Positions 30,636 through 34,686 of a stretch of 41,316 bases of DNA are shown here, piece by piece. Source of the DNA: a virus. Lineage: Duplodnaviria > Heunggongvirae > Uroviricota > Caudoviricetes. The notes under the pieces were generated by a model, which saw only the letters and a program-made list of their open reading frames with translations, was not told where the DNA came from and ran no database searches. Location: the IMG/VR virus record IMGVR_UViG_2681813145_000006. The stretch is one strand, 5' to 3'. Positions within the stretch are counted from its first letter, which is position 1; every line of letters starts with the position of its first letter. The translations under genes were made by a program, and so were the position numbers.

Positions 30636-30791
30636 TTACTCCTCAGGTTCGTAAGCTGTGAAGACAGCGACCTCCGTCTGGCCGGTTCGGATTCGTACCT
30701 CGCAGAGGTCTTTCCTCGTTACCAGTGCCGTCACAATGACGGTTAAACAGATGACGATCAGGGCGATTAACATCGCCTTTTGCTGCTTCAT
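30636..30791 (-). CDS. hokD: Hok/Gef family membrane toxin, 51 aa (HokD/RelF-like)
   Basis: ATG at 30789-30791 preceded by AAGGAGAA; MKQQKAMLIALIVICLTVIVTALVTRKDLCEVRIRTGQTEVAVFTAYEPEE has the Hok pattern; the listed ORF carries a 19-codon in-frame upstream extension. Confidence 0.75.
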   Translation of the reverse strand: MKQQKAMLIALIVICLTVIVTALVTRKDLCEVRIRTGQTEVAVFTAYEPEE

Positions 30792-31028
30792 AGCCTGCTT
30801 CTCCTTGCCTTTCGGCACGTAAGAGGCTAACCTAGATTTGCCGTTCATAGATTGAGCCTCAGATTAATGTTAAGCGTCTTGCCGGACGCGTAATGTTAAC
30901 TGGGGCTTTTCTCTATCTGCCTTTCAGTGTTCATGCCTGAGACAGATAGCCTCAAGCACCCGCAGCCATTCTACTTAACTCACGTCACCTCGCCAATATG
31001 AAATCAATCAGAAAGGTGATCCATAAAA

Positions 31029-31715
31029 TCACTCCTTCTCTTCTTTTCCGTAGTGGAGTTGGCCAATTTTGATAAGAGGGCGTCCCTGAGATTTGCGGTG
31101 TAGATTGGTATCGCGCAGAGAATACACACAGCCACAATATTCCTGCTGATAGAATTTTTCGCGCTTGCTGATTTCAATCATACGGGACGAGCCGCCCTGC
31201 TTGCGCCAGTTATAATCCCAGTACACCATACCCGGATAATGCGCAACAGCTCGCCGCCCACACTCGTTAACCTGCTGCATATTTTTCCAGCGTGAAATGC
31301 CCAGTGAACTGCTGATCACACTGAAACCATTTTCAGCAGCGTACAACGCTGTCCGCTCAAAACGCATGTCAAAACACATGGTACAACGGATCCCCCTCTC
31401 AGGCTCCCATTCCATTCCTTTGGCACGTTCAAACCAGTTGTCGGTGTCGTAATCAGCATCGATAAACGGCACGCCGTGTTGTTCAGCAAAGCGAATATTT
31501 TCATCCTTACGAATTAAATACTCTTTCTGAGGATGAATGTTCGGGTTGTAGAAAAAGATGGTGTAGTCGATTCCCGAGGCCTGAAGCGCCTCCATCACTT
31601 CACCGGAACATGGAGCACAGCAAGAGTGCAGTAGTAGTTTGTTTGCCCCGTTTGGGAGCTCCAATTTAGGCCGTTTGAAATCAGCAATAGTCATAAATAT
31701 TTTTATTGGGGTCAT
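31029..31715 (-). CDS. queH: Epoxyqueuosine reductase QueH-like protein (DUF208), 228 aa
   Basis: Motif [11 protein letters not shown] near the N-terminus and several further conserved Cys; an alternative ATG lies at 31692-31694. Confidence 0.65.
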
Positions 31716-31868: not shown

Positions 31869-32294
31869 CTAGTAACGTCTAAAATACCTAACATTTCCTT
31901 GATAAAATGCCAGTACACGCTGCATAGCTTCGCTCTTCCGGCACTCGCGACAGATTATATTCAGGCGCCTGTCGTAGCGGCGTATTTCGCCGTCTGGTAA
32001 CGACCAGATAAGGTCCGGATCAACCACTGCAGGTTTCTTCACCTTTGCCCTTGAGAGTTTTTTGCGGGCATTTTGCCAGTCCTTACGCGCCTGTTCAGAC
32101 GGGAATAACCCGTAGCCAGAATTGTATACATCGCCACTGGCAACCAGCTCTCTGGCGAGAACACTCATCAGATATCTTGTCGCACCTGTTTTCGCTTCCA
32201 GTTGTCGTAACGTCTCGCGCCCGCTCAGGCGCACGAGTTCAACAACCTGCCTCTTAATTTTTTCCCGCTCTTCTTGTGTAAATACTTTTGCCAC
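31869..32294 (-). CDS. Hypothetical basic protein, 141 aa
   Basis: GTG start at 32292-32294 preceded by AGGAGGG; lies downstream of the replication gene. Confidence 0.45.
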   Translation of the reverse strand: MAKVFTQEEREKIKRQVVELVRLSGRETLRQLEAKTGATRYLMSVLARELVASGDVYNSGYGLFPSEQARKDWQNARKKLSRAKVKKPAVVDPDLIWSLPDGEIRRYDRRLNIICRECRKSEAMQRVLAFYQGNVRYFRRY

Positions 32295-32334
32295 AAGCCC
32301 TCCTGAAAATTACCTCATGACCAGAAATTAACAC

Positions 32335-33405
32335 TTACCCCCTGAAGCCCGGCGGAATTTCGTTATCCGGTTCAGAAATATGATTCACACAACGCTGGTT
32401 GTTCGTGCCGCTTACCGGGAGCAACCAGGGGTTCTCAAAATTCCGGTCCGGTCCAAAAAACGTCGTCGCTCGCTGAACAAATTCCGTTCCCGTTTTCCCG
32501 GTAGCCGCCAGGTATCTTGCGTAACGCCTCACACCATCCAGCATGGCCTCTGGTGGCACCCCCTCGCGTAATCTGGCCTTCCAGGCACTGAAAGCGGATT
32601 TCTTCGGGTTTGCCCCAGCACGCAACGGGTATTCCCGCCAGACCTGTTCGAACACATCCGGATAATCTACTCGTCCCACAGGCTGCCCGGTGTTTTCCGG
32701 GACTACCCGATCGGCTTCCCGCTGAATGGCGGAATCGGCTTCAGGCTGCTGCAGTTGGTGTGATTGCTCCGGCCTTGCGGTCATCACCTGCTGCACAGCG
32801 CCCGAATCGGCTTTCAGCGCATACGCTGAATCGGCTTCCGGTGTCGTGCCTGCTGGCTGACCAGGATTGACGGTCTGAACATCCCCTGCCTGGTTCGTGG
32901 CGTTTTTTACGCCATGGACCATAGTGTTTTGATCTTCTTGATCTGTATCTTTATCTGTATCTTTATCTGTCGTGACTCGTCGTGACATGTGCGTGACATT
33001 TCGTGACGCGCCGTGACAATCGCCATTTTGTTCCTGCTTTCTTTCCCTCTCTCGCTGCGCCCTCTTGCGCTCTGCAGGAGATTTTGCGGTTTGCGAAATA
33101 TTGCCGTTGTCCTCTTTAAGCACCTGGCGTTTTTCCCATCCAGTGATTAAATCACCATCAAGTACCCGCCCCTGCATCGTCTGCAAAATTGAATCAATTA
33201 CCTCTTCTGTCACGTCGAGCGCACTTGCCAAATCTTCTGTCGTGACATCAATGTGACCTCGCGTGACATTTCGTGACGCGCTCACCAGGAGGTGGATATA
33301 CACTGCCATCACTGTTGCAATTGGCTGCCCTGACACCCTGGCAATTGTTCGCCACTTAGGGTCATTTGGCATGTCATGCCATAATCTGAGCCAGGCGTTA
33401 GCCAT
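32335..33405 (-). CDS. Putative replication initiation protein, 356 aa, with iterons inside its coding sequence
   Basis: ATG at 33403-33405 preceded by GAGGTG; two CGTGAC repeat clusters lie within the gene. Confidence 0.5.
   Translation of the reverse strand: MANAWLRLWHDMPNDPKWRTIARVSGQPIATVMAVYIHLLVSASRNVTRGHIDVTTEDLASALDVTEEVIDSILQTMQGRVLDGDLITGWEKRQVLKEDNGNISQTAKSPAERKRAQRERERKQEQNGDCHGASRNVTHMSRRVTTDKDTDKDTDQEDQNTMVHGVKNATNQAGDVQTVNPGQPAGTTPEADSAYALKADSGAVQQVMTARPEQSHQLQQPEADSAIQREADRVVPENTGQPVGRVDYPDVFEQVWREYPLRAGANPKKSAFSAWKARLREGVPPEAMLDGVRRYARYLAATGKTGTEFVQRATTFFGPDRNFENPWLLPVSGTNNQRCVNHISEPDNEIPPGFRG
32941..33017. repeat. Iteron cluster 1: two 12-bp tandem repeats ATCTGTATCTTT followed by five CGTGAC motifs at about 10-bp spacing
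   Basis: CGTGAC at 32971, 32981, 32992, 33002 and 33012. Confidence 0.7.
33241..33281. repeat. Iteron cluster 2: four (C/T)GTGAC motifs at about 10-bp spacing, including a 21-bp exact copy of cluster 1
   Basis: Motifs at 33241, 33252, 33262 and 33272; GCGTGACATTTCGTGACGCGC occurs at 32991-33011 and 33261-33281. Confidence 0.7.
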
Positions 33406-33476
33406 ACTCACCTCTTCTGATACCGAATCTTTTTACTCACGAGTTGCCGGAAGCGATTCGATATGGCTATTGTCAG

Positions 33477-33902
33477 TCAATGTACTGCCACAGCATTTCC
33501 TGCCGGGCCACCACGGTTCATCTGATTGAAACCGGCGATTGCCACTGCGACAAAATCATCAGCGTCTCTCACCAATCGCTCCCGCGTCTCCACCAGCTCC
33601 CGAAAATAAGCTGAACTGTGGCTGCGCATTCTGGCCACCAGCAAAGGTGGCATTGCCTTTTCGATCGCTGGTAACAACGCCTGAATTTTTTCAACTGCAT
33701 CAGGGGTGTCTTTCTCTACCCAGCGGAAAATTTTCTGGGTATTGCGAGCCAAGGCTTCCGGATGGCTGTCGTCATACAGTTCCGGGAACGTCATTCCCAG
33801 CTCGAAATACGCTTTGGTAATTTTCGCAGCCGGTACTTTTTCGCCGTCCGGATGCGCCCAGGCATTCATCGCCATGCGGATGTGTTCATGCTTGATTTTC
33901 AT
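33477..33902 (-). CDS. YdaT-like protein (putative CII-like regulator), 141 aa
   Basis: ATG at 33900-33902 preceded by AGGAG; second gene of the rightward early operon; the name is by size and synteny with Rac ydaS-ydaT. Confidence 0.5.
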   Translation of the reverse strand: MKIKHEHIRMAMNAWAHPDGEKVPAAKITKAYFELGMTFPELYDDSHPEALARNTQKIFRWVEKDTPDAVEKIQALLPAIEKAMPPLLVARMRSHSSAYFRELVETRERLVRDADDFVAVAIAGFNQMNRGGPAGNAVAVH

Positions 33903-33905
33903 GAA

Positions 33906-34166
33906 TCAACTCCTAGAAAGTGGTTGTGTTAACATTTTGGTATCTTCCAGCTCGGGCCAAATATTCATCCAATCAAAAGGCCTTAGTTGCTGACGTGTAA
34001 CTTCACCATTACTGCCTCGCTCAATAAGGACACATAACGATGCCCCTAACACTTGACCTTTACTCAATGCCTTTCTTAGATAACCGATGCTGGTACCACA
34101 CTCGCATGCAAACATACGCTGTTCATCTGACGAAAGAGAATTGAGAAATATTCTTAATTCTTCCAT
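33906..34166 (-). CDS. Cro/DicC-like HTH regulator, 86 aa
   Basis: ATG at 34164-34166 preceded by AAGGAG; divergent from the repressor gene. Confidence 0.55.
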   Translation of the reverse strand: MEELRIFLNSLSSDEQRMFACECGTSIGYLRKALSKGQVLGASLCVLIERGSNGEVTRQQLRPFDWMNIWPELEDTKMLTQPLSRS

Positions 34167-34176
34167 AGCTACTCCT

Positions 34177-34268
34177 TAGTAAACACAGCAAAGAATACCC
34201 ATAGGTAAACAAAAGTCAATACCCACAGGTTGTTTACCTTGCAGTAATCGCATCTATTATTTACCTAT
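34177..34268. promoter_or_regulatory. Immunity-region operators and divergent promoters
   Basis: Repeated half-sites TAGTAAACA (34177), TAGGTAAACA (34202), inverted TGTTTACCT (34231) and TTTACCTAT (34260) in the 100-bp gap between divergent regulator genes. Confidence 0.5.
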
Positions 34269-34686
34269 GGACAAATATGAATTTAGACGACAGCAACTCA
34301 TCAAAATTCGTGATGAGAAATGCGATGGTAAAGCGGTTAACGTGGCCAGAAAGATCGGGCGCGAGCCTTCTTATGTATCAAGAATGTTGTACCCAGAGGG
34401 GAAAAAGGGAAAAAAACGGATCGCTGATGATATGGTGGAGATTATCGAAGAGTCCTTTGGGTTACCCCGGGGATGGATGGATGGTATCGTTTCATCATCA
34501 ACGAACACAGCCTCCAGTTATGAAACAAGGGTTCTAACGCCACGACAACGTATTTTTTTAGATCTCTTAGACGAGCTCCCTGACAGTGAAGCGGATAACT
34601 TATTAAAAACTCTTGAAGAGAAAAAACAGAAGTACAATGCAATTTACGAAGAGTTAGCACGAAAGAAAAAACAAAAAGCCTCTTAA
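34267..34686 (+). CDS. DicA/CI-like repressor (HTH, XRE family), 139 aa
   Basis: ATG at 34267; HTH around AVNVARKIGREPSYVSRML; C-terminal helical tail resembling DicA as recalled. Confidence 0.6.
   Translation: MDKYEFRRQQLIKIRDEKCDGKAVNVARKIGREPSYVSRMLYPEGKKGKKRIADDMVEIIEESFGLPRGWMDGIVSSSTNTASSYETRVLTPRQRIFLDLLDELPDSEADNLLKTLEEKKQKYNAIYEELARKKKQKAS

Follow-up and report, generated by a model that had tools for sequence, protein, structure and literature searches.

A probable replication origin with two phased iteron arrays inside the initiator gene of a lambdoid prophage

It is well known that a phage origin of replication can consist of iterons and a run rich in adenine and thymine (AT) embedded in the initiator gene. 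The origin of phage lambda (ori-lambda) has a palindrome beyond its AT tract, and in the plasmids P1 (incC/incA) and F (ori2/incC) a second iteron cluster serves as a copy-control element. In ori-lambda, the iterons and the AT tract lie in the middle of gene O, and among Stx phages the difference between four and six iterons accounts for 13 extra residues in the initiator (PMC7466680). The SPP1 origin oriL likewise places direct repeats, together with an AT-rich unwinding element, inside gene 38, whose product G38P binds two separate repeat regions (PMC6316719). Here we describe an arrangement of this kind in IMG/VR record IMGVR_UViG_2681813145_000006, a stretch of 41,316 nucleotides (nt), referred to below as the window, which comprises the whole of a lambdoid E. 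coli prophage whose early region is Rac-like. Positions 32891-33281 of the window are probably the replication origin of this prophage, situated inside the coding sequence of its own initiator. On the best reading of the sequence, the first of two iteron arrays and an adjoining AT-rich run would form a lambda-like core origin, and the other would be a second array for the same protein. The elements of the region are the following.

32335..33405, minus strand: initiator gene, 356 amino acids (aa) from the ATG; the longest open reading frame (ORF) starts at a GTG, 33411.
32971..33017, minus strand: linker iteron array (cluster 1); the coding strand has GTCACG as five direct cores, at nt 388, 398, 408, 419 and 429 of the gene.
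33241..33277, minus strand: loop iteron array (cluster 2), GTCACG, GTCACG, GTCACA and GTCACG at nt 128, 138, 148 and 159 of the gene.
33209..33214, plus strand: single GTCACG core of opposite orientation, 32 nt past the last loop iteron, encoded as D-V-T with GTG for Val.
32991..33011, no strand assigned: first copy of a 21-mer, exactly matching the second.
33261..33281, no strand assigned: second copy of the 21-mer, exactly matching the first.
32922..32970, minus strand: AT-rich run of 49 bp, 29% guanine and cytosine (GC), directly past the last linker iteron; candidate DNA unwinding element.
32891..32921, no strand assigned: hairpin-capable inverted repeat with TGGCGT-A5-ACGCCA as its core, lying beyond the AT run.

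A first-pass annotation of the window had noticed five CGTGAC motifs at 10-11-bp spacing in the region of the linker array, and a motif search located them on the plus strand at 32971, 32981, 32992, 33002 and 33012, with spacings of 10, 11, 10 and 10 bp. Of the four motifs it had assigned to the second cluster, three are exact copies on the plus strand (33241, 33262 and 33272), and the fourth is a TGTGAC with one mismatch at 33252-33257 (spacings of 11, 10 and 10 bp). Its distance of about 270 bp between the clusters corresponds to an array-to-array offset of 260-270 bp, given as a range because the linker array has one extra unit; the gap between the arrays is about 230 bp. The 21-mer GCGTGACATTTCGTGACGCGC that it had reported twice is indeed duplicated exactly, at a level not reached in 100 shuffles (0 matches), and comprises two iterons with their flanks, both copies encoding ASRNVT. 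The 12-bp tandem repeats it had seen beside the first cluster were recovered by Tandem Repeats Finder as a 12-bp unit repeated 2.9 times at 32936-32970, next to a 10-bp unit repeated 4.9 times at 32969-33018. To these elements we add the oppositely oriented core listed above. The clustering is pronounced: nine of the 24 CGTGAC/GTCACG sites of the 41-kb window fall within 307 bp (32971-33277), and the first 480 nt of the initiator gene hold eight of the hexamers, when about 0.09 would be expected from the remainder of the window. The GTCACG cores have no internal dyad symmetry. Because the unit length is 10-11 bp, successive cores stand in different reading frames, in which they read Val-Thr, x-Ser-Arg or Cys/Gly-His.

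Directly past the last linker iteron, the coding strand continues as (GATAAAGATACA) repeated 2.9 times, which encodes DKDTDKDTD; the AT run also includes two GATC sites. The GC content falls to 0.30 in 32920-32959, the minimum of a gene that is mostly at 0.55-0.65. A run of (GATAAA/GATACA)n follows the iterons directly in the relatives as well, whichever specificity group they belong to. Beyond it, as in lambda, lies a palindrome, here at 32891-32921, whose predicted single-strand DNA fold has an energy of -8.7 kcal/mol (z -4.0). In two related loci whose proteins are 47-52% identical, the corresponding segments fold with low z values too (L173, z -3.8; L174, z -6.5). Separately, this segment shows near-zero synonymous change between L173 and L174. 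A resemblance of the AT run to the oriC 13-mer GATCTnTTnTTTT was considered and rejected, since with up to two mismatches the window holds 18 matches for 13 expected, and one match in the run is at chance level.

The end of the AT run also coincides with a junction to other C-terminal modules. Prophages behind E. coli database hits annotated as 'DnaT-like ssDNA-binding domain-containing protein' (H58-H64; ssDNA, single-stranded DNA), some of them from O157:H7, match the window at 85-99% identity over the N-terminal domain, the two arrays and the AT run. These prophages switch to another C-terminal module exactly where the AT run ends (about 32935-32948 of the window), and for this reason the (GATAAA)n run can be regarded as a mosaic joint between an origin-recognition module and a helicase-recruitment module.

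The region resembles ori-lambda in lying within the initiator gene, partly in the segment coding for the link between an origin-binding N-terminal and a recruiting C-terminal domain, in the order of direct repeats and AT-rich tract along the gene (PMC7466680), and in that iteron number alters protein length, as relatives with extra cores have longer proteins (P0003, P0022 and L003). It differs from ori-lambda in that the initiator has no sequence relation to lambda O, in that the window encodes no P-like protein, although two relatives do (L003 and L004), and in that the repeats are short 6-bp cores without dyad symmetry at 10-11-bp spacing, whereas the lambda iterons are longer; nor does a second array in the region coding for the DNA-binding domain have a counterpart in lambda. 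The lambda O/ori arrangement put forward in the first-pass annotation therefore holds for the order of the linker array and the AT run, and fails for the protein, which is not a lambda O homologue, for the repeats, which are not 19-bp units, and for the second array. With SPP1 oriL the locus shares direct repeats together with an AT-rich element in the gene of the origin-binding protein, two separate repeat regions, and a protein that carries the NCBI name 'phage replisome organizer'. The G38P sites, however, belong to two origins about 13 kb apart, whereas the arrays of the window are about 230 bp apart in a single gene, and SPP1 has genes of its own for a loader (G39P) and a helicase (G40P), neither of which is encoded in the window, while several relatives do encode such proteins. 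Iteron plasmids such as P1 and F similarly combine one initiator with two arrays of direct repeats, one of them at the origin beside an AT-rich region; their iterons, of about 17-22 bp, are found outside the coding sequence of rep, unlike the arrays of the window, which lie inside the ORF.

The initiator matches phrog_3729, 'replication initiation protein', from end to end (E 2.4e-257, aligned from residue 3), with weak matches to two PHROG replisome-organizer families (phrog_4880, 2.7e-6; phrog_5968, 1.8e-4). A Pfam scan at E <= 0.1 gave a sub-threshold match to HTH_Crp_2 only, with no Phage_rep_O, no replisome-organizer N-terminal model and no PF17948, and NCBIfam gave no usable domain match. 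We regard the protein as an initiator of the 'replisome organizer' type and, because it lacks a Pfam match, not as a homologue of lambda O; its membership in the G38P family is weakly supported by sequence. We modelled it with AlphaFold2 from 13 homologues, and the model is reliable only in the N-terminal domain and in parts of the C-terminal one. The predicted layout comprises an N-terminal DNA-binding domain (aa 1 to about 95), a basic helix (aa 110-126), a disordered linker (aa 128-244), a helical C-terminal domain (aa 245-320) and a DnaT-like tail. In detail, the model and the coding sequence give:

aa 2-14, 16-25 and 29-45: predicted helices.
aa 46-55: low-confidence loop, with a predicted local distance difference test score (pLDDT) below 50 at aa 47-51.
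aa 56-63 and 67-77: predicted helices.
aa 110-126 (33028..33078, minus strand): predicted basic helix AERKRAQRERERKQEQ, coded between the two arrays.
aa 128-244: linker, pLDDT mostly below 50, read as disordered.
aa 250-316: predicted helical C-terminal domain.
32338..32400, minus strand: DnaT-like tail NQRCVNHISEPDNEIPPGFRG, the C-terminal 21 residues.

The loop array encodes ASRNVTRGHIDVT (aa 43-55), in the low-confidence loop that joins helices 3 and 4 of the N-terminal domain. The linker array covers aa 130-147, in the opening part of the disordered segment, and its cores are translated in three frames as CH, SR, VT, SR and VT within the peptide CHGASRNVTHMSRRVT (aa 130-146). According to the model, both arrays are thus coded where the protein sequence is least constrained, in a surface loop and in a disordered linker.

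To separate the demands of the DNA from those of the protein, we counted codons of the conserved loop peptide at 20 loci, using the same genes as background. Within the cores, the synonymous positions are practically frozen:

Val as GTC: 40 of 40 in the loop, 17% in the background.
Thr as ACG: 39 of 40 in the loop, 23% in the background.
Gly as GGT: 20 of 20 in the loop, 21% in the background.
Ser as TCA: 19 of 20 in the loop, 15% in the background.
His as CAC: 19 of 19 in the loop, 51% in the background.

The Arg codon, whose third base falls in the spacer, varies freely (CGA 8, CGT 4, CGC 7, CGG 1). This pattern indicates that selection on the repeats acts at the level of DNA and not of protein.

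The same layout recurs well beyond the window. A scan of one genome per species yielded 51 loci, and the layout was found in about 20 genera of Gamma- and Betaproteobacteria, with hosts from Enterobacteriaceae to Burkholderiales and Pseudomonadales. It consists of cores at nt 128, 138, 148 and 159, a gap mostly of 227-229 nt, a further three to five cores spaced by 10-11 bp and then, directly, the (GATAAA/GATACA)n run. The four loop positions are retained in 16 of 22 sequences examined, and 15 of 22 have a YGTGAC of opposite orientation at nt 191. At 21 loci, from Escherichia, Aquitalea, Bordetella, Pseudomonas, Acidovorax, Serratia, Chromobacterium and others, the first 480 nt of the gene contain 146 GTCACG motifs where 1.7 are expected from the flanks, an enrichment of about 85-fold, although the loci used for these statistics share descent and the counts overstate the number of independent events. 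Shared descent affects neither the three or more independent switches of motif nor the freezing of synonymous sites in hosts that differ in GC content. When viral contigs were scanned for three phased cores, 120 matches were obtained, of which 82 lie in genes of the initiator family at the two expected offsets, 59 of the 120 at the linker-array offset; most of the remainder are in more distant organizer-like ORFs, where they occupy the linker position and purine/AT repeats follow once more. Four viral contigs (L068, L077, L083 and L122) carry phased GTCACG triplets in very short ORFs, apparently between genes, which may be origins of unrelated elements with the same core. In a distant subfamily (WFRWHHG...), represented by L115 (4818-5688) and L103, two GTCACG arrays about 300 nt apart share GTCACGyAATGTCACGGTwGGTCACG, with the first array placed elsewhere in the N-terminal domain (peptide LSRNVTVGH). 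As the first array there occupies a different protein position at a distance of about 300 nt, the property that recurs appears to be the DNA distance between the arrays and not the position in the protein.

The two arrays change together. When motif classes were scored at both array positions by means of fixed protein anchors, the outcome was:

GTCACG in both arrays: 22 loci.
CGAACG(C) in both arrays: 4 loci.
GTAACG(C) in both arrays: 4 loci.
None of the three motifs in either array: 5 loci (L028, L030, L035, L037 and L046).

Copies of these motifs are nearly absent from the same genes outside the arrays. For the P0091 lineage, GTAACGCA-type cores were predicted in both arrays from the protein alignment alone, and the DNA of L173 bore this out, with cores at nt 151, 162 and 172 and at nt 423, 433, 444 and 454, followed by GATAAAGATACAGATACAG. 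The longest word shared between the loop and linker arrays measures 17-21 nt in five of 20 genes, namely the 21-mer of the window and 17-18-mers in L003, L004, L005 and L019, as against 6-10 nt in a control segment. Since the arrays share such long exact words at five loci, concerted evolution of the two is suggested.

Co-variation also points to the protein that reads the cores. The initiator is the sole protein family common to all 17 GTCACG-type loci within 3 kb, the next families being present at nine and eight loci, while the C-terminal domains and the downstream genes differ among these loci. The motif class, furthermore, tracks the subtype of the N-terminal domain, in which the differences lie in the loop and in the basic helix with the 9-aa indel that precedes it. 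Because it is the only family at all 17 loci and the motif class follows its N-terminal subtype, the N-terminal part of the initiator is most likely the binder of the cores and is the most economical candidate.

A more adventurous idea, which we consider improbable, is that the loop coded by the upstream array itself helps to recognise the iterons, so that binding site and reader would be one and the same stretch of DNA. The N-terminal helices are near-identical between specificity groups, whereas the loop is wholly different (SRNVTRGH, NATERGRTQ, GNAGVTQSNA); Arg, Asn, Gln, His and Thr abound in the loop, and the same motif is always present in both arrays, all of which would be consistent with such self-encoded recognition. 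None of this singles it out, as the basic helix and the 9-aa indel before it (aa ~100-126) are also group-specific, the loop peptide co-varies trivially with the iterons that encode it, and the loop is of low confidence in the model. If the idea were correct, an iteron change in the loop array would rewrite the recognition loop in one step, and gene conversion would then bring the linker array into line, so that origin specificity had switched completely.

The proposal of the first-pass annotation that the replication gene contains a candidate origin thus gains support from the phrog_3729 match, the AT run, the conservation at the DNA level, the co-variation and the replication context of the relatives. 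In the mechanism we envisage, the N-terminal domain of the initiator would bind the 6-bp core (T)GTCACG, and the head-to-tail cores, one every 10-11 bp, would place the protomers on one face of the helix. The five-copy linker array and the 49-bp AT run would act as the core origin: an oligomer on the linker array would destabilise the AT run at 32922-32970, where the host replicative helicase would be loaded. The four-copy loop array, about 230 bp upstream, would serve as a second array, most likely cooperating with the first by looping or wrapping of the intervening DNA. The C-terminal domain and the DnaT-like tail would recruit host DnaB/DnaC or the primosome. One stretch of DNA could be used both as codons and as binding sites because the arrays sit where the protein tolerates nearly any sequence.

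Several observations do not sit easily with this scheme. Helical phasing between the two arrays depends on the period assumed (Rayleigh p 0.02 at 10.0 bp, 0.34 at 10.5 bp). The five loci with none of the tested motifs in either array fall outside the three motif classes. The initiator model is weak overall (predicted template modelling score, pTM, 0.29), and a Foldseek search with it against the PDB returned only non-significant winged-helix matches (E > 1). More distant relatives have the linker array alone (L079; L126 has two upstream copies only), and from this the loop array appears dispensable for the basic design. In the literature on the motif with iterons and on replisome organizer or DnaT-like origins, we found no description of an origin for this initiator family. 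No DnaA box and no IHF consensus occurs in 32300-33500; this can be counted on the same side, although for a lambda-like origin it carries no weight either way.

The role of the loop array is where the strongest competitor lies. It is possible, although we favour it clearly less, that the linker array and the AT run alone constitute the origin and that the loop array serves negative control, by titration or 'handcuffing' of origins, in the manner of the second clusters of plasmids P1 and F, or as a roadblock to transcription of the initiator's own gene. Such a division of labour would suit the lack of a strongly AT-rich neighbour at the loop array, where the GC content is 0.40-0.53, and the sufficiency of the linker array in distant relatives. 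The loop array also lies close to the start of the ORF, at a distance of just 128 nt, so that RNA polymerase would run into protein bound there, and second iteron clusters with control roles are established for iteron plasmids. Restraint of copy number, on the other hand, would be of little use to lytic phage replication; the common orientation and the concerted evolution of the arrays fit cooperation equally well; and the first array of L115 and L103, again some 300 nt upstream at another place in the protein, suggests an architectural role that depends on distance.

A second alternative concerns activity and requires a view of the neighbouring genes:

34267-34686, plus strand: DicA-like repressor gene.
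33906-34166, minus strand: Cro/YdaS-like gene.
33477-33902, minus strand: CII/YdaT-like gene, the upstream neighbour of the initiator.
31869-32294: DUF977 gene, directly after the initiator, labelled 'Ren-like exclusion protein' in PHROGs.

After the initiator, the genes run in the order DUF977, QueH, Hok, DUF968, RusA and Q, and from the initiator to Q the window has no helicase or loader gene, in agreement with the first-pass annotation, which had seen no DnaC-like or helicase gene adjacent. In relatives, the position directly after the initiator is taken by a lambda-P-like gene (L003, 4046-4507; L004), by a DnaC/IstB-like gene (L173, 2487-3236; L174, 2451-3194, both with the C-terminal domain type of the window) or by a primase-helicase gene (L013, 4049-5929). 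One could therefore suppose that the region is an origin by descent, inactive in this prophage for want of a helicase-loader gene: DUF977 stands directly after the initiator of the window, where L173 and L174, with the same C-terminal domain, have the DnaC/IstB-like gene and L003 and L004 the lambda-P-like one. We consider this unlikely. The nine cores, the AT run and the ORF are all intact, and DnaC is available from E. coli itself. The same succession of initiator and 141-aa DUF977-type ORF also occurs in phages recorded as isolates; the initiator gene is present at 98-99% identity in Tritos, Evi, vB_EcoS-689R5 and others, which argues that the module belongs to live phages. The module is moreover intact in 2078 of 5426 complete E. 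coli genomes, which carry the 5' 540 bp of the initiator gene mostly at an identity of at least 99%.

How an active origin could do without a phage-encoded loader is suggested by the end of the protein. A phmmer search against PDB sequences aligned the tail to residues 159-179 of DnaT (9zbt_D, 2ru8_A, 6aep_A), with which it shares SEPDxxIPPGFRG, while the remainder of the initiator is unlike DnaT. The NCBIfam DnaT model NF002770 scored 19.2 bits against a cut-off of 201, on the tail only, and found no DnaT match in the rest. Many of the mosaic relatives have a full DnaT-like ssDNA-binding domain (PF17948). The structure papers on DnaT (PMC13377028, PMC4132743) do not state a role for its C-terminal tail. 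The tail may mimic a host primosome contact in a module without a loader of its own. Because the window encodes no loader and the protein ends in this tail, we infer a route through host helicase loading, and our suggestion that the initiator works via host DnaB/DnaC or via the host primosome is speculative.

That the repeats are bound by some other protein, such as the CII/YdaT-like product, the DUF977 product or a host factor, for transcription control, packaging or recombination, seems very unlikely to us, even though we infer rather than observe contact between initiator and iterons and the junction of C-terminal modules at the end of the AT run makes the region at least a recombination joint. 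The best of the neighbouring families are present at only nine and eight of the 17 GTCACG-type loci, the motif class shifts with the N-terminal domain subtype (loop and basic helix), a single host factor is unlikely for hosts that extend from Enterobacteriaceae to Burkholderiales and Pseudomonadales, and iterons followed by an AT run are the classical layout of an origin (PMC7466680, PMC6316719).

Finally, it might be supposed that the repeats serve needs of the protein, whether a peptide repeat or a metal site of Cys and His in CHGASRNVTHMSRRVT, or that codon usage produced them by chance. This notion could appeal to the recurrence of ASRNVT and (D/R)VTT in both arrays and to the Cys-His richness of some variants (P0003), yet it is hardly credible, and it is refuted as far as sequence analysis can do so, because the unit of 10-11 bp is not divisible by three and uses three frames, the synonymous positions of the cores are fixed while non-core positions and several residues vary, G or R replaces C at the 'CH' positions in many relatives, and the enrichment over the flanks is so large.

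With respect to the literature searched, what appears to be new about the proposed origin is its assignment to a very widespread initiator family, the short 6-bp core at 10-11-bp phase, and the second array in the region coding for the DNA-binding domain, which changes in lock-step with the first. Papers on 'Eru', which deal with the replication regions of non-lambdoid Stx phages, mention neither iterons nor the initiator gene. A plasmid search for a minimal replicon with the initiator gave 11 uninformative records, most of them large plasmids that contain prophages or chromosomes with a wrong label. The gene is listed in databases only as 'hypothetical protein' or 'phage replisome organizer', and its matches carry no origin feature, which amounts to an annotation gap, as the module is found in prophages of the 2078 E. 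coli genomes mentioned above, O157:H7-type included, and in phages of many other Proteobacteria. Locating the origin would provide a handle for studying and manipulating the replication of a very common class of prophages. The arrays also offer a case of dual coding, in which what is probably a protein-binding array is laid over codons in all three frames and becomes visible as frozen synonymous sites, and the three or more naturally swapped specificities (GTCACG, CGAACGC, GTAACGC) could be used for dissecting origin recognition. The missing loader gene and the DnaT-like tail, taken together, suggest how a phage initiator may tap the helicase-loading machinery of its host.

Two further observations concern the vicinity of the arrays. 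Between the replication module and DUF968/RusA/Q, the minus strand carries a homologue of QueH (epoxyqueuosine reductase; 31029-31715) and a Hok/Gef toxin gene (30636-30848); the QueH gene is an unusual passenger for a lambdoid early region. In the region coding for the disordered linker, an 8-mer (ATCGGCTT on the plus strand, AAGCCGAT on the coding strand) occurs four times, at 32710-32717, 32734-32741, 32806-32813 and 32830-32837, as two pairs exactly 24 nt apart and always in frame as (E/K)-A-D with GCC for Ala. Only one further copy exists in the 41-kb window, a pair at 24-nt spacing is also present in L173 and L174, and a 96-nt unit with one such pair is missing from 324-aa variants (P0005). 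One possibility is that the 8-mer is a second class of DNA site, another that it reflects a short acidic motif of the peptide.

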